From a virus (Duplodnaviria; Caudoviricetes), in IMG/VR virus record IMGVR_UViG_3300031555_002578: a stretch of 64,000 nt of DNA; one strand, written 5' to 3'. The translations under genes and the position numbers were made by a program. The stretch's first letter is position 1; every line of letters begins with the position of its first letter. Under the pieces are notes generated by a model that saw only the letters and a list, made by a program, of their open reading frames with translations, did not search any database and was not told the origin of the DNA. This document shows positions 41,713-47,810 of this stretch, piece after piece.

Positions 41713-42342
41713 TTATATGTTAAACAACTCTGCCTTTTGTCTTGGGTTATACTTTCTTTTATCTAAAGCAGAAATTTGTTTTTTAATATCCTCAGAAACA
41801 ACTTTTCCTACTTCTTTATCTAAGATAATATTTAATACAGTTAGTTCGTTTTTAATGGAACGTCTTTTAATCATAATCTTTTTAAGTCTTGCATATGCTT
41901 GGTATCCTTGATAAGCATTACAGTTCACAAGTTCAATATAGTGTTCTTCGTCAGATTTCTCTTGGTCTATAACACTTAATTGTTTTCTTAATTCTTCTCT
42001 ACGTTTACTTGCTTCATCAGCCAATCCATTTAGTTCTTCTAACTTGGTTAGCCATTGAGAAACATAATCCGTTTCCATTACCTTTTCAGTATTTTCATTT
42101 AACTGTTCATTAGTTAATGCTTTTACTTCTTTGGGGTCTGCAACAATTACTTGCTGTACTCTAAATATCTTTTTTAAAGGTTTTGGCAAACAGTTTTTAA
42201 GAATATTTTCTGCTTGAACTTTTGTGTAATGTTCTGCCATAGATTCCCCATATGAGGGAACATATTTTCCTTGATGATTACGAAATATAAAACGTTGACC
42301 ATCTGTTAGTATGTAATTTTTTATTTGCGTAATGATAACCAC
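41713..42342 (-). CDS. Hypothetical coiled-coil protein
   Basis: 209-aa ORF directly downstream of the RNA cluster. Confidence 0.8.
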   Translation of the reverse strand: MVIITQIKNYILTDGQRFIFRNHQGKYVPSYGESMAEHYTKVQAENILKNCLPKPLKKIFRVQQVIVADPKEVKALTNEQLNENTEKVMETDYVSQWLTKLEELNGLADEASKRREELRKQLSVIDQEKSDEEHYIELVNCNAYQGYQAYARLKKIMIKRRSIKNELTVLNIILDKEVGKVVSEDIKKQISALDKRKYNPRQKAELFNI

Positions 42343-42367
42343 ATCCTATCTTCCTGTAATTAAGGAG

Positions 42368-42449
42368 TGGAGAAAGAACGACTTGAACGCTCAACTTGGC
42401 AACATATAATCTTCCAAACGCCATGTTTTACCAGTTAAACTACTTCCCC
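42368..42449 (-). tRNA. Atypical tRNA: UGG (Pro) triplet inside a 17-nt anticodon loop; G3-U70/A73 acceptor
   Basis: GGGGAAG/TTTCTCC acceptor, GTTT/AAAC D-stem, TGGCG/TGCCA stem around TTTGGAAGATTATATGT, GAGCG-TTCAAGT-CGTTC T-arm. Confidence 0.75.
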
Positions 42450-42550
42450 ATATTGGGCAGATTCTACTGCCCAAAGACTACAGAAAGGAACTACTAGATG
42501 AAAAACAAGAGATTTTACCTAGTATTTTATCGGGTCATCACTCCGACAAA

Positions 42551-42722
42551 GGCAAGATGCATGGAATTGAACCATTCTTAGTGTTTGTGGGCAACCATGT
42601 TTTCTTCAAAATATTGAGCCTACCCTAAAGAAAAGAAGGTTCACACCTCTCTTTCTTAATGGTAGATAAATAATTTAAATACTATTGATTCACTAAGAGC
42701 CTACCGTACAAGGCACATTTGC
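42551..42722 (-). ncRNA. tRNA-like RNA with a 107-nt insert replacing the anticodon loop
   Basis: GCAAATG/CATCTTGC acceptor, GCCT/AGGC D-stem, TCTTAGTG/CACTAAGA stem, ATGG-TTCAATT-CCAT T-arm. Confidence 0.7.
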
Positions 42723-42933
42723 TTAGTTTATGCCAACCAATCCTCACAGACATAAACATGACCACCTTCTATACACTGTGGTCTTCCCCATCCGTGTTTC
42801 CAAAAAAGAATATAAATGACATTTCCATACAGAAACATCGTATCACCTCAACACATGACGGAATTGAAGTGTTGAGATTTTCAACTGTGGCTAACAGTTG
42901 TTGCATAGATGCCGACAAAACATCTGTGCGTAA

Positions 42934-43006
42934 AGTCGGTAACGAGGGTCGAACTCGCAATCCCCAGAGTGGAAGTCTGGTGTGTTAACCATTACACTAT
43001 ACCGAC
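42934..43006 (-). tRNA. tRNA-Gly(UCC)
   Basis: Canonical cloverleaf, CCAGA-CTTCCAC-TCTGG, U73; no encoded CCA. Confidence 0.9.
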
Positions 43007-43274
43007 TTAGAGATAGCGGAGAGAACAAAACCAACACTGTCCTCTCCAAGAATCAATACAAATGATAAGAGGTTAGGTTATTAAAAATAGAAACCGTAAT
43101 AACCTATTAAGGAATTTAAAATTTTAGATTAACAATTAGACTTTGGGCTTACACTGTGCTGACCAGTGTGGATAGTAACCGTACTCAGCCCATGTTACTG
43201 ACGGGGCAGATACCGTCAGTATAAAATAAAAGGATTGAAACAAGAAAGTTAATTAGGCAACACTTTCTGTTTAA

Positions 43275-43357
43275 GGGGCAGTCCTTGAATCGAACAAAGG
43301 TTAAGCCATATATACATTCGTGGTAGTTGTGGTGGAAATGTATACTTTCTTCTGCCC
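43275..43357 (-). ncRNA. tRNA-like RNA lacking a D-stem, with an 18-nt C-rich loop
   Basis: GGGCAG/CTGCCC acceptor, TATACATT/AATGTATA stem, CCTTTG-TTCGATT-CAAGG T-arm. Confidence 0.6.
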
Positions 43358-43441
43358 ATAATGTGATAATCTTTTACACCAAAGACTATCACAAACATTT
43401 TAGAGGAACTACAATGAATTTCATTTAGAATCCGTTGTATA

Positions 43442-43603
43442 GGCATAGTGAAGGAATCGAACCTTCTTAATAGGATAAACACTAAAACGAGGTTTTTATT
43501 TCTAAAGGAATGATATGTACAAAATGCTAAATCATAAAGGAAAGATGATTTTATTCAGTGTGAGTAATAGTGATTTATGCATTTATCCTACTCCATTCTA
43601 TGC
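43442..43603 (-). ncRNA. tRNA-like RNA with a 12-bp stem and 96-nt insert
   Basis: GCATAG/CTATGC acceptor, TAGGATAAATGC/GTGTTTATCCTA stem, GAAGG-TTCGATT-CCTTC T-arm. Confidence 0.72.
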
Positions 43604-43720
43604 ATATTATATAGAATAGGCTGAAAGATTAATTGCCGTTGTAATATATTTGCAGATACATTACGAATCCAACAACCTATTCTATATGGAAGGGGTACAA
43701 TCATGAAATGACTTCCGATG

Positions 43721-43867
43721 ATGAGAAGTTGGGGAATCGAACCCCAAATAAAACAAATTTTCACGATGTTTGCCTACAATGTGGAGTACATTATCCAGAA
43801 TCAGATTAACGAGGATGTACTTAGACGGGTATTGCAGATTGTTTTTATTTTCCTACATACTTCTCAT
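43721..43867 (-). ncRNA. tRNA-like RNA with a structured insert
   Basis: ATGAGAAGT/ACTTCTCAT acceptor, AATAAAAACAA/TTGTTTTATT stem, TGGGG-TTCGATT-CCCCA T-arm. Confidence 0.72.
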
Positions 43868-43878
43868 ATTATATAAGT

Positions 43879-44339
43879 TACCCACCGTTTATCAGCCTTG
43901 CAGATGCTTACGGACAATATCATTACTCCAAACTGTAACTCAAGGATTTTGTAAAACGTTTTTCTTTATCGGGACTATAAGAAACCAACATCATCATAAA
44001 TTGAGTACATACTATATTCCAAATTAAATCATTAAACAATCTTTTAATAGAATATAAGTCCCTTCTTTGCACTTTTAACTTTATTATTTAGAACTGAACT
44101 TTGAGCATTGAACTTTAATTCTTTAAACCTTGAACATTGAACTTTACAGTGCATTAGAATCCGTTTCTATAACGGGAATATAATTTCATCTTGTAAAATA
44201 TGTAATATGTTTTTAAGAATAATGCCTTAACAGGGCAGTTCTTGATAATATCGGATTTTATTTATCTTTTTACATTGGTCTACTTTCCGATTAAAAGACA
44301 AATGAATGATAGTTAAAAGTTTCCGATAAACGATGGATA
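43879..44339 (-). ncRNA. ~460-nt structured RNA with an internal heptamer-repeat tract
   Basis: TATCCATCGTTTATCGG (44339-44323) pairs over 17 bp with CTGATAAACGGTGGGTA (43895-43879), using G-U pairs available only on the minus strand; no credible ORF. Confidence 0.75.
44065..44145 (-). repeat. ~11 degenerate tandem 7-mers, consensus AAAGTTC
   Basis: AAAGTTC AATGTTC AAGGTTT AAAGAATT AAAGTTC AATGCTC AAAGTTC AGTTCT AAATAAT AAAGTTA AAAGTGC. Confidence 0.85.
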
Positions 44340-44363
44340 TTTTTATTTAGTTAGAAACACTTA

Positions 44364-45008
44364 TCAATAAGTAAATTCGATTTCTGTCAGAGAATTGCTC
44401 ACAGACAGAGCAGAATCAATTTCAACGAGGAAATCATTGATTTTTGTTTCCAGTTCTCTAATTTTATCAACGATTTTAATTTCATCAATAAAATCATAAG
44501 AATTCTGTTCAATGTATTCTTTTTTAGCCAGAGAAGCATTTTCGCCTTTCTTAGCATCTTCATTAGAACCATACATTTCTACAATGTATTTTTCTGCTTT
44601 TCTTTCCAGTTCATCACCATTTCTCATAGTGATAGTATTCTGTTCTTTATGATACTGTTTTTTCAGTTCTGCCAGAAGGTACTGGTCATACTCAACGCCA
44701 TGATTTTTCATCTCAATGGCTTCTGCAACAGTACATTCAATATCATTGATTTTTACCATTGTAACTGCATTGGACAGAACCAGTGCTTTTTTCATGGCAT
44801 TTCTTCTTTTGATTAGAGAAGTTGCTCTGTCATAATCACCTTGCATTTTTGCTCTGTAATCTGTCAGAGTAATGCCAGAAATCTTCATATTAGAATGTTT
44901 GTTTGCAATACAGTATTTACCTGTATCGATTGCATCAATGATTCTTTTATCCATTGTTTTCAGTTCCGCTAAACATTTGTGTACGGACATTCTTTCAGTT
45001 GTAGCCAT
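44364..45008 (-). CDS. All-helical coiled-coil protein embedded in the RNA cluster (start MATTERM at 45008)
   Basis: AGGAG RBS 9 nt upstream; SVHKCLAELK, LSNAVT, TVAEAIEMK and EIDSALSVSNSLT suggest an internally duplicated helical repeat reminiscent of DIP1984-like proteins. Confidence 0.85.
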   Translation of the reverse strand: MATTERMSVHKCLAELKTMDKRIIDAIDTGKYCIANKHSNMKISGITLTDYRAKMQGDYDRATSLIKRRNAMKKALVLSNAVTMVKINDIECTVAEAIEMKNHGVEYDQYLLAELKKQYHKEQNTITMRNGDELERKAEKYIVEMYGSNEDAKKGENASLAKKEYIEQNSYDFIDEIKIVDKIRELETKINDFLVEIDSALSVSNSLTEIEFTY

Positions 45009-45051
45009 AATTAACATCTCCTTTTAAATTTTGATTTTTGAATTTTAATGA

Positions 45052-45126
45052 AAAATCGTACTGGGAATCGAACCCAGTGTTCCTGCTGTGAAAAGAGCAG
45101 AGCCTTTACCTCTTGGCTAACGATTA
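45052..45126 (-). tRNA. tRNA-Glu-like with an 8-nt anticodon loop (CUUUUCAC) and 6-bp T-stem
   Basis: CTGCT-CTTTTCAC-AGCAG; ACTGGG-TTCGATT-CCCAGT; AATCGT/ACGATT acceptor. Confidence 0.75.
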
Positions 45127-45212
45127 CTTTGCCATCGTCATGGCTATCTCAGTTCCCACACTGAGATATTTTACAGGCATAAGTCTATCATTTGAGTGAT
45201 AGTTATGTATGT

Positions 45213-45726
45213 TGTTGTAAACAGATTATTCAGTACCTTCAACTGTGGTTACATGACTATGTATGAACCAGAATCTAAAAACCAACAACCAGAAATCGTT
45301 TCTACATTTAAGGTGACAGCCTATATAATATACTTCGATTTCCATTTTCGCTTTCACCTCTGTCACGATGAAAACTGAACGACTGTAATAATGTTAATAT
45401 CTTGAATCTCAAATAGGCAGAAAAAATACAAGATATTTAGATTACAGTATGATAGTTCAATAAAAGAGAATAGCATATATTGCACTATCGTTGTTTGTAC
45501 CAACCATCCACACAGATACAAACTTGTCCATCTTCCATAATTATGGACTTCCCACATTGTTAAAGTACGCTTAATCGGTTTTGACTTGGCTGAAAACAAT
45601 TCAGAACGATAAGCCAGAATCTAATGTGTGCTTGTGGTATAAGTATGACACATCAGATGTTGTGCAATTAAAACCACACAAACTTCATTGCACTTGTCTT
45701 ACGCATTTATGATGTTATTTACAACA
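45213..45726 (-). ncRNA. Large (~510 nt) multi-helix noncoding RNA
   Basis: 11-bp closing helix TGTTGTAAATA/TGTTTACAACA and at least eight internal stems; lies between tRNA genes. Confidence 0.65.
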
Positions 45727-45761
45727 GAGCAATGGGATTATAAGACATTCCACCCAAGTAG

Positions 45762-45855
45762 CGGCAACGGAGGGATTTGAACCCCCATGTCGGATGCAAA
45801 GCCGACACAACTGATTTCAAGTCAGTGCCGTTATAACCAATTTCGGTACGTTGCC
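45762..45855 (-). tRNA. tRNA-Ser(UGA)
   Basis: ACTGA-CTTGAAA-TCAGT, long variable arm, G73. Confidence 0.93.
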
Positions 45856-45864
45856 ATTATAAAT

Positions 45865-45934
45865 TTGGAGAACTGTGGATTTGAACCACTCTACCCCGTA
45901 AAGGGTGTGCTAACCGTTACACTAACGCTCTCCA
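45865..45934 (-). tRNA. Degenerate tRNA with a shortened anticodon arm
   Basis: GGAGAGC/GTTCTCC acceptor, intact D and T arms; anticodon arm only ACCCT-TTAC-GGGGT. Confidence 0.65.
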
Positions 45935-46071
45935 GATTGTGACTGATTTCTCAGTCACGATACATAGCAACTCTATAACCCTTTATGAACCTAGAAAGGA
46001 ACGTGTAGATATCAATTTAAACCAATTTGTTTACCAGACAAATTTTCGACCAGTATTAAATTGATATCTGA

Positions 46072-46153
46072 TTGGGAAGGAAGGATTTGAACCTTCACAC
46101 ATGTAACCATGCTAGGGTGCTACCCTATGCGTCTGCCATTTCGCCACTTCCCT
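46072..46153 (-). tRNA. tRNA-Leu-like scaffold with a 5-nt anticodon loop
   Basis: GCG/CGC D-stem, TAGGG-TAGCA-CCCTA, variable-arm hairpin, GAAGG-TTCAAAT-CCTTC, A73. Confidence 0.7.
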
Positions 46154-46195
46154 AGATTGTGGCTGAAAATATCAACCACATGTCCTAAGACTAAA

Positions 46196-46278
46196 TCGGG
46201 CTAACGGGAGTTGAACCCGTACTGCTCAAAGCAAATGGATTTTAAGTCCATCGTGTCTGCCTGTTCCACCATAGCCCG
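46196..46278 (-). tRNA. tRNA-Leu(UAA)
   Basis: ATGGA-CTTAAAA-TCCAT, variable arm, A73. Confidence 0.92.
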
Positions 46279-46435
46279 TTATTGCATGATGATTTACTAA
46301 TCTAACTTCCCGTAAAAATGAATGCTTTTGTATGTAAAAAACAAAAATCACATTTTAGATGAAAAGTTATGTATTATGTTTAAAAATTTTGAAAGACGTT
46401 TTGCAGAAGTTTAATCAGCAAATCATCATACTAAA

Positions 46436-46509
46436 TGGGTCTTGAAGGACTTGAACCTTCGACCGACCGCTTATGAGGCGGTTGCTCTGACCATCTAAGC
46501 TAAAGACCC
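46436..46509 (-). tRNA. tRNA with CAU anticodon, Ile2-type
   Basis: ACCGC-CTCATAA-GCGGT; body resembles Firmicutes tRNA-Ile2 rather than the initiator. Confidence 0.85.
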
Positions 46510-46512
46510 TTA

Positions 46513-46832
46513 TGGGGTGATAGTTTTACCAAGATAGTTACAGATTGCTACTCTCCTAACTATCCGTTACTCCAACTAACAAGGATGCACATTATATGTA
46601 TAACCCCACGCAGGACAGCATTTCCCTACTTCCACACTTTCGCAGTGGCATTGCGTCTAGCATCTGATAACTTTCAATCACTTTCAAACTACTTACGTTC
46701 TCCTTGGTTCGTTTGATTGTAATTACAAACATGGCAGTCAACATAACCATTACTAGATTAAAGCGTTATCCTTTCGGACGAGTGAACTACCCACTCCTAT
46801 GAACCTAGCCGTTAGTTCTTTCCTAACAGTCA
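46513..46832 (-). ncRNA. ~320-nt structured RNA at the head of the cluster
   Basis: Stems CTGTTAG/CTAACGG, GAGTG/CACTC, GTCC-GAAA-GGAT, CCAC..GAAA..GTGG, GATAGTTA/TAACTATC, TGGGGT/ACCCCA; GC higher than coding DNA. Confidence 0.55.
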
Positions 46833-46895
46833 GAGGATATACATTTTATTAAGTTTTTGTTATTTAAATAAGGAATTTTTGTGGAAAACACCACA

Positions 46896-46924
46896 TTGAC
46901 ATGAGAAGAAAAAATATGTAAAAT
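46896..46924 (+). promoter_or_regulatory. Plus-strand sigma-A promoter
   Basis: TTGACA-17 nt-TAAAAT. Confidence 0.7.
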
Positions 46925-46989
46925 AAAAGAGCAGGTGTATCCTGTATATTATAAGATTCTTTTCAGTGTCTTGTAATGTTTTTGGTTTC

Positions 46990-47037
46990 GACCTCACTAC
47001 AAACTTTGCCGAGCCAGTAGTGAGGTCTTTTCTTATT
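46990..47037 (+). terminator. Plus-strand intrinsic terminator
   Basis: GACCTCACTAC/GTAGTGAGGTC 11-bp stem followed by TTTTCTTATTT. Confidence 0.75.
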
Positions 47038-47046
47038 TACATCCTT

Positions 47047-47075
47047 ATTATACCAAACATACATTCGTTTGTCAA
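47047..47075 (-). promoter_or_regulatory. Consensus sigma-A promoter driving the RNA cluster
   Basis: TTGACA-17 nt-TATAAT with TGn extension and A-rich upstream element. Confidence 0.85.
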
Positions 47076-47118: not shown

Positions 47119-47448
47119 TTATTCATCTATTGCTTCTTTTTGTGCAAAAGTAATACAGTGAATAAAATTCGGTTCTTTCAAAACATTCATAAGTTCCATT
47201 CTTCCAAAAAAGGAATGGTTTTCGTAATCAATGGATTTCGCTTTTTCAATCAGTTTATATCCATCAAACTTTTTCATCCATTCTGTATTCCCACTGGTAT
47301 GTGTTTCTACATTAATAATAGTTACACAAATATTATCAGAAGGGGATTCATCTATTAACCTTTTTGCTTCTTTTTTAGAAACATACTTGGTAACGACTGT
47401 ACGATTGTATTTTCTTTTGCTTTCTCTCATCGTAACACTTCCTTCCAA
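47119..47448 (-). CDS. Hypothetical protein coupled to the MazF-like gene
   Basis: Overlaps the upstream stop; GGAAGG RBS. Confidence 0.7.
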   Translation of the reverse strand: MEGSVTMRESKRKYNRTVVTKYVSKKEAKRLIDESPSDNICVTIINVETHTSGNTEWMKKFDGYKLIEKAKSIDYENHSFFGRMELMNVLKEPNFIHCITFAQKEAIDE

Positions 47449-47810
47449 TTAATTTTTTCACCATAGAAGAACGATAAATAACATACTTTATTTACTTTAT
47501 TTTTCTGATTTGGGTTTGTAATTACTCCCAATTTTCTTACAACTTCACTTTTGCATATAGTAGTTAGTTGTTCACCAAGAAGCATCGAATAGTATTCTAG
47601 CCCATTTTCTGTCTCTACATCAAGACATTCATGTGTTGGTAAATATTCTTTTTTAATGACATGAGTTAGAGGAACTACTGTTACTACTTCTGCACTTGAA
47701 GTACCACGTTCATTACTTACAATTATACATGGTCTTCTTTTGCTTTGCACAGAACCAGTGGCATTTCTATTTTCAACTTCTATTACATCGTATCTATGAA
47801 ACTCCATCAT
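47427..47810 (-). CDS. PemK/MazF-family endoribonuclease-like protein
   Basis: GSVQSKRRPCIIVSN, VVPLT, LPTH, EQLTTICK. Confidence 0.88.
   Translation of the reverse strand: MMEFHRYDVIEVENRNATGSVQSKRRPCIIVSNERGTSSAEVVTVVPLTHVIKKEYLPTHECLDVETENGLEYYSMLLGEQLTTICKSEVVRKLGVITNPNQKNKVNKVCYLSFFYGEKINWKEVLR

Follow-up and report, generated by a model that had tools for sequence, protein, structure and literature searches.

RAGATH-27 (Rfam RF03100) has been recorded as an orphan candidate small RNA (sRNA) of 86 positions, whose first 46 conserved bases are drawn as unpaired. No function or partner protein is on record for it, our literature search returned no paper mentioning its name, and RAGATH motifs are not mentioned by name in the main text of Weinberg 2017. 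The precedent of RAGATH-18, the guide RNA of the IS607 TnpB nucleases (PMC11061315), shows that orphan motifs lying behind a protein gene can hide whole systems. Previous work has also described the long tRNA arrays (L-arrays) of cyanobacteria (Santamaria-Gomez et al. 2021, PMC8421152), in which embedded hypothetical open reading frames (ORFs) are drawn as empty arrows without function and the RNA considered here is not mentioned. Here we analyse a stretch of 64,000 nucleotides (nt) from a virus of the Caudoviricetes (IMG/VR record IMGVR_UViG_3300031555_002578; hereafter the window), in which RAGATH-27 covers only the 5' fifth of a full non-coding RNA (ncRNA) that directly follows a gene of the phrog_1491 family. 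Judged from their sequences, this gene and this RNA, together referred to as the module, are an obligate and ancient pair, and we regard it as virtually certain that the RNA is a genuine structured molecule with an obligate partner gene.

Every long ORF of the window is encoded on the minus strand, as expected of a large phage. The interval 47047-42368 is a cluster in which tRNA genes and tRNA-like elements are grouped with ORF-free stretches; its single protein gene is 44364-45008 (minus strand), encoding 214 amino acids (aa). The RNA of 461 nt (44339-43879, minus strand) begins about 25 nt past the stop of this gene and is closed by a 17-bp helix, UAUCCAUCGUUUAUCGG (44339-44323) with CUGAUAAACGGUGGGUA (43895-43879). 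All parts of the module are present in the window: the 13-bp helix, the GAAAAC joiner, the phased YAAAGYU array and AAAUCC-P3...P3'-GGCU, directly 3' of the gene.

45019-45046, minus strand: mRNA leader with four in-phase heptamers, AAAATTC AAAAATC AAAATTT AAAAGGA, read from the sequence
44364-45008, minus strand: gene of the helical protein of 214 aa, phrog_1491 family (ATG 45008-45006, stop TGA 44366-44364)
44323-44339, minus strand: 5' strand of the closing helix P1 (family core of 13 bp at 44337-44325, 17 bp in the window)
44250-44337, minus strand: 5' domain, the Rfam RAGATH-27 match, made of joiner, P2a and Rfam stem
44324-44305, minus strand: conserved joiner GGAAACUUUUAACUAUCAUU, within the 5' domain
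44305-44311 with 43924-43918, minus strand: long-range pseudoknot, UAUCAUU with AAUGAUA of the 3' domain, linking the joiner to the 3'-domain hairpin
44304-44296 with 44281-44273, minus strand: helix P2a, CAUUUGUCU with AGACCAAUG, all 9 pairs covarying
44292-44286 with 44256-44250, minus strand: Rfam stem of the 5' domain, AAUCGGA with AUCCGAU
44150-44249, minus strand: variable region of lineage-specific hairpins, not alignable across the family
44064-44149, minus strand: heptamer array, CUG UAAAGUU CAAUGUU CAAGGUU UAAAGAAU UAAAGUU CAAUGCU CAAAGUU (spacer) UAAAUAA UAAAGUU AAAAGUG CAAAGA
43971-44063, minus strand: optional inserted hairpin AGGGACUUAUA...UAUAGUCCC between array and 3' domain (columns 582-700 of alignment A2, below)
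43894-43970, minus strand: last two heptamer units and 3' domain, AAACGUUUUACAAAAUCC, then P3, P4, P5, the 3' strand of the pseudoknot and GGCU
43945-43941 with 43900-43896, minus strand: P3, CCUUG with CAAGG, 99.7% paired, 4 of 5 pairs covarying
43935-43933 with 43903-43901, minus strand: P4, CAG with CUG, 94.5% paired
43929-43928 with 43913-43912, minus strand: P5, GG with CC
43879-43895, minus strand: 3' strand of P1, with a tRNA-like element next downstream

A sequence-only reading of the window had already reported the four heptamers running in phase into the Shine-Dalgarno (SD) sequence, the gene, the RNA of about 460 nt, the 17-bp helix, the repeats and the CCTTG/CAAGG stem, and each of them was recovered where it had been placed. 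That reading lacked three points, namely the RAGATH-27 5' end, the pseudoknots and the membership in mobile tRNA arrays and T5-like phages.

The pairing of gene and RNA was assessed in both directions. All 80 IMG/VR loci found through the protein (42-58% identity) carry the 5' domain, the repeat block and the 3' domain of the RNA in this order, straight after the stop codon. Species-representative genomes contribute 69 further loci, from Clostridia and their relatives and from more than 40 cyanobacteria; the cyanobacterial homologues, at 27-33% protein identity, retain the RNA with the repeat block following the gene, and their gene copies sit inside long tRNA arrays. Two strains of the L-array paper, Calothrix sp. 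NIES-4105 and (Dulci)calothrix desertica PCC 7102, are among these loci (PMC8421152). The closing helix and the repeats downstream of the gene, whose conservation in homologues the sequence-only reading had put forward among its checks, are indeed kept: a 13-bp helix stands directly before GAAAAC and after RGGCU in 144 of 150 sequences (149 loci and the window), the array holds about 12 units in register, and the six failures of the helix are cut contigs or a mis-set frame. Wherever a related locus has enough sequence, the gene is followed by the RNA (144 of 144). At locus L064 the gene has a single in-frame TAG at codon 4 (3004-3006; Glu in relatives) and is otherwise intact. We rejected the idea of a broken gene there, as this TAG is the only one in frame and the RNA is intact; a downstream start could be used, or the phage could recode TAG.

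In the reverse test, an IMG/VR scan with a 17-mer of the 3' domain, the gene was found upstream of 50 of the 50 intact RNAs having enough upstream sequence. L159 and L222 at first looked like exceptions but share a single locus type: a 467-aa ORF has taken the place of everything between codon 11 of the gene and the mid-array, while the heptamer leader, the first 10 codons, the last units and the 3' domain remain (L159 724-2333, the same in L222). Gene and 5' half of the RNA were therefore lost together by this insertion. The 467-aa ORF has zinc-ribbon-like CxxC pairs and is possibly of the homing-endonuclease type.

The pair extends far into deposited phages, as tblastn located the protein in 719 of about 50,700 phage genomes. 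Five of these phages were inspected (the T5-like NBEco002, Bacillus phage Bcp1, Vibrio phage Chloris, Pseudomonas phage phiPsa315 and Klebsiella phage KB57), and in each an unannotated gap of 360-480 nt after the gene contains the closing helix, phased units and AAAUCC-P3..P3'-GCUG; the landmarks of Bcp1, Chloris, phiPsa315 and KB57 were missed by the rigid helix finder and read by eye. Bcp1, Chloris and phiPsa315 have an intrinsic terminator behind the RNA, indicating that gene and RNA end one transcription unit there. Gene and RNA at 80% identity or more are common to 441 T5-like records, including phages of E. coli K-12 from the BASEL collection, and the protein family as a whole counts 3038 cluster representatives at 50% identity. 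A search for nearly identical phages among deposited ones at the DNA level returned only Dulem virus 39, with 65% over the gene, and our search of the T5 transcriptome and ncRNA literature found nothing on the T5-like module locus. NC_048855.1 (41516-42154) and many other RefSeq T5-like records label the gene 'tail fiber protein', apparently after phrog_1491, and several T5-like records annotate spurious 'hypothetical protein' ORFs across the RNA. Other orphan RNAs occur near the module: FuFi-1 lies antisense just upstream of the gene in sister phages, and drum and skipping-rope RNAs are found in the same tRNA clusters. The positions of these orphan Rfam motifs are L033, L034, L035 and L038 (about 2655-2835, minus strand), L062 (524-634) and L039 (5074-5153).

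To what extent the RNA is held together by base pairing was measured on alignment A2, a set of 73 non-redundant RNAs, 232-462 nt long, of Firmicute-type phage or cyanobacterial origin, for six helices (P1, the long-range pseudoknot, P2a, P3, P4 and P5). Standard pairs occupy 92.6% of 2528 cells, against 36-46% when the partners are slid, and both-sided (compensatory) changes occur in 39 of 40 base pairs, the two pseudoknot helices included, against 21-28 with slid partners. The covariation score is 0.603 and does not exceed 0.122 after sliding; none of 500 shuffles reaches the observed values. In P1 all 13 pairs covary and 97.6% of the cells are paired, pair 7 being G-U in 62 of the 73 sequences. 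P2a is interleaved with the Rfam stem, giving an H-type pseudoknot. The long-range pseudoknot, for which only Firmicute-type rows were counted, shows changes on both sides at 7 of 7 pairs with 87% of its cells paired, and cyanobacterial RNAs have the pseudoknot UUUAUGG/CCAUAAA instead, in other columns of the alignment. The 3' domain is kept from phages to cyanobacteria. P1 is also part of the minimum-free-energy (MFE) fold of the window's RNA, a fold modestly better than that of shuffled sequences (z-score -2.66, 0 of 100 shuffles as stable). A coding function for the region was considered and rejected, since its only ORF (43923-44072, 49 aa) is not conserved and the indels do not come in threes.

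The remaining parts of the RNA vary between lineages. ARAGORN detects a tRNA nested in the variable region of 8 of the 73 RNAs (complete tRNAs for Asn, Ser, Asp, Gly, Leu and Lys among L097, L101, L107, L113, L127, L132, L142 and L094), and many cyanobacterial copies have degenerate tRNA-like inserts at the same site. An insert analogous to the optional hairpin, of the form GGGC...GCCC, is present in L039-41, L062-63 and L074-78.

With the complete structure at hand, the position of RAGATH-27 becomes clear. RF03100 matches the window at 44337-44250 over its full model (1-86) with 72.5 bits (E 5e-9), under the gathering score of 76.1, and the window is absent from the RF03100 scan at the gathering threshold. 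In 12 of 20 sister representatives the motif lies above the threshold (78.5-97.4 bits) in the same place behind the same gene. The window aligns column by column with these members and has the features of the motif, a conserved 5' sequence of 46 nt followed by a hairpin with a UAGAC..AUGUAAAA..AAAGAA loop, with a posterior near 1 throughout; we therefore treat it, on this alignment, as a divergent true member of RAGATH-27. The bases that the Rfam model leaves unpaired are, in our structure, part of the closing helix, the long-range pseudoknot and P2a. The conservation of this seemingly unpaired half is explained by partners that lie 300-400 nt away, outside the Rfam entry, or are unmodelled in it. 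RF03100 did not find the cyanobacterial and T5-like branches of the family; in the cyanobacterial loci only tRNA appeared among the best 150 of 230 matches.

Between its folded ends the RNA carries the heptamer array. The sequence-only reading had counted about 11 heptamers, and this count stands: the array at 44149-44064 has about 11 units, with two more beyond the inserted hairpin, and its lag-7 identity is 0.505 (family mean 0.547), compared to 0.30 +/- 0.055 for shuffles. The family consensus is 7 + 5 units of YAAAGYU (about 12), in which A2, A3 and U7 are conserved at 0.95 or more, and a short spacer separates the 7- and 5-unit blocks in the Firmicute type. Unit number and register are kept across phyla, from gut phages to cyanobacteria. 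The array sequence, A-rich at 40%, folds weakly in the window (-0.037 kcal/mol/nt, z +2.6, worse than shuffles). Self-folding of the array was rejected, as its MFE does not differ from that of shuffles across the family (mean z -0.66). This low folding suggests that the array is probably displayed single-stranded by the scaffold and is accessible. We also rejected a pairing of the array with a putative 'anti-heptamer' of the joiner, GAAAACUUUAAAC, which forms a duplex with its own array barely better than with the arrays of other members: -5.67 vs -4.92 kcal/mol in the Firmicute type (31 of 51 better) and -4.01 vs -3.95 in cyanobacteria (8 of 22). A 10-bp joiner-array helix in the MFE fold of the window is not conserved.

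The same motif recurs ahead of the gene. The last of the four leader heptamers overlaps the SD sequence AAAGGAG (45024-45018), and the gene starts at the ATG at 45008, 9 nt after AAAGGAG, an assignment we made because homologues begin with MTTEK/MATxEK. Taken alone, the four units of the window are weakly significant, and their support comes from homologous leaders. Firmicute-type leaders contain 0.90 strict YAAMGNU matches per 46 nt (n=50 non-redundant loci), a 13-fold enrichment over the 0.07 found elsewhere on the same strand; shuffled leaders gave 0.079 +/- 0.042, with a maximum of 0.24 in 500. In the majority of Firmicute-type and T5-like leaders the motif adjoins the SD sequence, its units typically continuing into it, as in ..AUAAAGUUUAAAAUUCAAAGUUAAAAAGGAG, and the same heptamer phasing is seen in the leaders of T5-like NBEco002 and Klebsiella phage KB57.

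The protein matches phrog_1491 with an E-value of 3.6e-48, a family labelled 'tail fiber', and the motifs RRxAxKxAVxS, AEAIEMKNHG and LSxSN are invariant in its alignment. For the window protein itself we found no Pfam family at E up to 1, no NCBIfam match and nothing meaningful in a PDB sequence search. The sequence-only reading had pointed to the DIP1984-like family, which is tentatively supported, as a distant resemblance, at the level of the fold and not by any significant sequence match: PF20935 (DUF6847/DIP1984) is matched by 1 of 28 relatives at E 0.02, with the gathering score not reached. An AF2 model (pLDDT 79) is helical with short strands, and two methods agree on PDB 3kdq, an uncharacterised protein of C. 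diphtheriae, as the best structural match, with a Foldseek probability of 1.0 at E 0.077. VIA aligns 151 of 152 residues to 3kdq with Z 11.0 and an rmsd of 5.5, the next match having Z 7.8 and the advised level for helical proteins being about 13. The Atlas gives TM scores of 0.56-0.66 to a DUF6847 cluster. Neither TRAP nor HutP is among the fold matches listed for this all-helical model. In the literature we found no paper naming DUF6847 and nothing relevant on DIP1984.

A helical, oligomeric protein had also been proposed from the sequence, and the predictions agree with both properties. A three-copy model gives an ipSAE of 0.58, against 0.12 for the best of three controls; the mark for this score was attained by 20 of 30 proteins whose solved structures are same-chain pairs and by 1 of 23 with single-chain structures, in a calibration whose setup differs from our run with its own alignment and three copies. 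The runs share at least 72% of their contacts, with a partner pLDDT of at least 80. The predicted interface is symmetric, with residues 23-129 and 167-182 on both copies; it is thus a dimer contact and not the head-to-tail contact of a ring.

In the window, the module is embedded among tRNA genes and other small elements.

47047-47075, minus strand: sigma-70 promoter with consensus TTGACA-17-TATAAT and TG, a 12/12 match by pattern only, heading the tRNA/ncRNA cluster
47427-47810, minus strand: PemK/MazF-like toxin ORF (PF02452, E 3e-13), immediately upstream of the cluster promoter
47119-47448, minus strand: ORF of 109 aa without a family, overlapping the end of the PemK/MazF-like ORF, an order unusual for type II toxin-antitoxin systems
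46629-46799, minus strand: weak RAGATH-36 (RF03104) match of 30.5 bits (gathering score 70), closely following the cluster promoter
45130-45757, minus strand: about 600 nt free of ORFs, flanked by a tRNA on either side and unmatched in Rfam at E up to 10
45053-45125, minus strand: tRNA gene with an 8-nt anticodon loop (ARAGORN 'tRNA-???', four-base anticodon tttc; Rfam tRNA 37.2 bits)
42368-42449, minus strand: tRNA of 82 nt (Rfam 46.9 bits) missed by ARAGORN, which may have an insertion in its anticodon loop

No minus-strand terminator was found within the cluster, which is probably read as one polycistronic transcript driven by the promoter at 47075-47047, as far as the sequence signals indicate. 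The tRNA at 45125-45053 lies upstream of the protein gene, its end 6 nt from the heptamer leader, and on the other side a tRNA-like element, with its T-arm at about 43740, begins directly downstream of the end of the closing helix at 43879. A strong RAGATH-36 (103 bits) is present at 1946-2073 of the sister locus L060, upstream of its module copy. Because nhmmer profiles of the heptad RNA match the window once only, the stretch 45130-45757 does not represent another copy of it.

Based on these observations, we propose a working model. Each copy of the module would consist of a helical protein of about 210 aa and an ncRNA of 230-460 nt that is co-transcribed just behind it. The RNA would act as a rigid scaffold, built from the 13-bp closing helix, the joiner held in the long-range pseudoknot with the 3' domain, and the stacked P3-P5, and would present an A-rich, weakly structured loop of 85 nt with about 12 YAAAGYU heptamers. 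The protein, as a dimer or a higher oligomer, would bind these heptamers to give a particle of defined stoichiometry. In Firmicute-phage and T5-like lineages, surplus protein may then bind the 2-4 look-alike heptamers of its leader at the SD sequence and switch off its own translation, in analogy to ribosomal proteins and TRAP; self-repression by a protein that assembles on the array is plausible. The module would travel with mobile tRNA arrays, whose constant company suggests that the particle probably acts on tRNA or translation biology, in infection or under stress.

The module is thus probably an undescribed protein-RNA particle. The full model, with binding of the protein to the heptamers and, for some lineages, to its own leader, relies on the strict co-inheritance, the defined number of phased accessible units, the same motif at the SD sequence and the predicted oligomerisation, and to us its chances of being right appear about even. 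Several results weigh against it. The leader units of the window are degenerate (YAAAA), with no strict YAAMGNU match. The co-conservation of upstream heptamers expected from the sequence-only reading holds for Firmicute-type and T5-like leaders but fails in cyanobacteria, where no enrichment was found (0.14 vs a background of 0.063), suggesting that autoregulation through the leader is not universal and at best lineage-specific. No recognised RNA-binding domain was found in the protein by Pfam, NCBIfam and PDB sequence searches; its match to 3kdq, itself a protein without known function, lies under the safe level for helical bundles; and the symmetric dimer interface neither yields nor excludes an assembly with one subunit per heptamer. 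ROOL and GOLLD, moreover, form multimers of RNA only (10.1101/2024.12.08.627333). An extension of the model to an ancient, unrecognised ribonucleoprotein (RNP) of mobile tRNA arrays, with about a dozen protomers (for example six dimers) on the heptad loop and acting on tRNAs or the translation apparatus, is possible and, on balance, doubtful. If true, such a particle may, for instance, protect the tRNAs of the arrays or counter host defences that target tRNA, and a new class of RNP would have gone unnoticed in the relatives of phage T5 and in L-arrays.

The absence of a known RNA-binding domain would also fit an RNA that works by itself, either as a multimeric ornate machine like ROOL and GOLLD or as a decoy or sponge, with the upstream protein linked to it but not a ligand of the heptamers. 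As a decoy, its single-stranded YAAAG units might soak up a host factor, such as ribosomal protein S1, an A-rich-binding chaperone or a single-strand-specific endoribonuclease (MazF/PemK-type or an anticodon nuclease), and UAA/UAH-type sites do occur in many units. The setting also resembles that of ROOL and GOLLD, with a large and ornate RNA in phage tRNA clusters and with drum, skipping-rope, FuFi-1 and RAGATH-36 in sister loci. A current view is that the tRNA arrays of phages offset attacks on tRNA or translation, and L-arrays are induced under translational stress (PMC8421152), which would suit such a role. We consider this explanation unlikely, however, because gene and RNA co-occur at nearly 100% in both directions and in a fixed order over huge distances, and because the heptamers recur in the protein's own leader. 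A host factor titrated by a decoy would hardly be constant across E. coli, Clostridia and cyanobacteria, and neither ROOL nor GOLLD has an Rfam match at E up to 10 in 42300-47000.

The direct flanking by tRNA or tRNA-like elements within polycistronic tRNA clusters could instead indicate a cis-acting 3'-UTR or processing element, which would stabilise or punctuate the tRNA/mRNA transcript and have no function in trans. Its closing helix would then serve as a minihelix resembling acceptor and T-arm for RNase P/Z, or as an RNase III site; the length of the helix equals an acceptor plus T stack, the G-U at pair 7 is conserved (62/73), and nested tRNAs are tolerated. The roughly 12 phased heptamers conserved across phyla, the two pseudoknot helices and the invariant joiner nucleotides would, on the other hand, be superfluous in a stabiliser. 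The RNAs of Bcp1, Chloris and phiPsa315 have an ordinary terminator behind them, with no adjacent tRNA within the stretch read. We therefore hold this possibility to be very unlikely. Improbable to a similar, slightly greater degree is a toxin-antitoxin or abortive-infection pair following type III logic, in which the free protein would be harmful and the repeat RNA would sequester it. A repeat RNA beside a protein gene on mobile elements, with an apparently fixed balance of protein and RNA through the leader heptamers, is in line with such a pair; yet the gene order is reversed relative to ToxIN, CptIN and TenpIN, the units measure 7 nt instead of 34-45 nt and show no evident processing sites, the helical protein lacks a nuclease fold of the Kid/CcdB type, and hundreds of strictly lytic phages (the 441 T5-like records) have the module as part of their core. 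The protein-RNA particle remains our preferred reading.

The relevance of these findings lies in how common the module is, in T5-like, Bacillus, Vibrio, Pseudomonas and Klebsiella phages and in the long tRNA arrays that spread horizontally in cyanobacteria and Clostridia. Its protein has been labelled 'tail fiber' or 'hypothetical', and of its RNA only an 86-nt orphan fragment had been recorded. Defining the full RNA together with its obligate partner corrects a widespread misannotation and accounts for the conservation of the first 46 bases of RAGATH-27. It also turns the non-tRNA cargo of mobile tRNA arrays into a testable question in a model phage and host.

Compared to described systems, the module shares individual features with several of them. 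The protein has DIP1984/DUF6847 (3kdq) as its best structural match and may share its fold, with no significant sequence match, and is about 60 residues longer. ROOL and GOLLD are likewise large, ornate phage or prophage RNAs beside tRNA genes, but lack both an obligate partner gene and a heptad array. The type III toxin-antitoxin systems (ToxIN, CptIN, TenpIN) also place a protein gene next to a tandem-repeat RNA on mobile elements; their repeats of 34-45 nt lie upstream and are cut into units by a toxin with an endoribonuclease fold, whereas the module has repeats of 7 nt downstream and a helical, DIP1984-like protein. With TRAP and HutP the module has in common a phased array of short single-stranded motifs, in HutP likewise with a 7-nt period and in two blocks, whose occupancy could control a downstream SD sequence. 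Those proteins are beta-rich rings (an 11-mer in TRAP, a hexamer of the HutP type) acting on mRNA leaders, while the protein of the module is helical in its model, a predicted dimer and apparently unrelated in sequence and fold, is presumed to bind heptamers, and has its main array in a dedicated, scaffolded ncRNA. A titration logic is suggested by the parallel with CsrA/RsmA and sponges of the CsrB type, where many copies of a motif on one RNA are matched by the same motif overlapping an SD sequence. The Csr system, however, uses GGA in hairpin loops of an sRNA with loose structure, and the gene of CsrA, a global regulator, is located elsewhere. The module departs from the GGA loops of CsrB and combines YAAAGYU units, set in one weakly structured loop of a pseudoknotted scaffold, with a dedicated, co-encoded protein.

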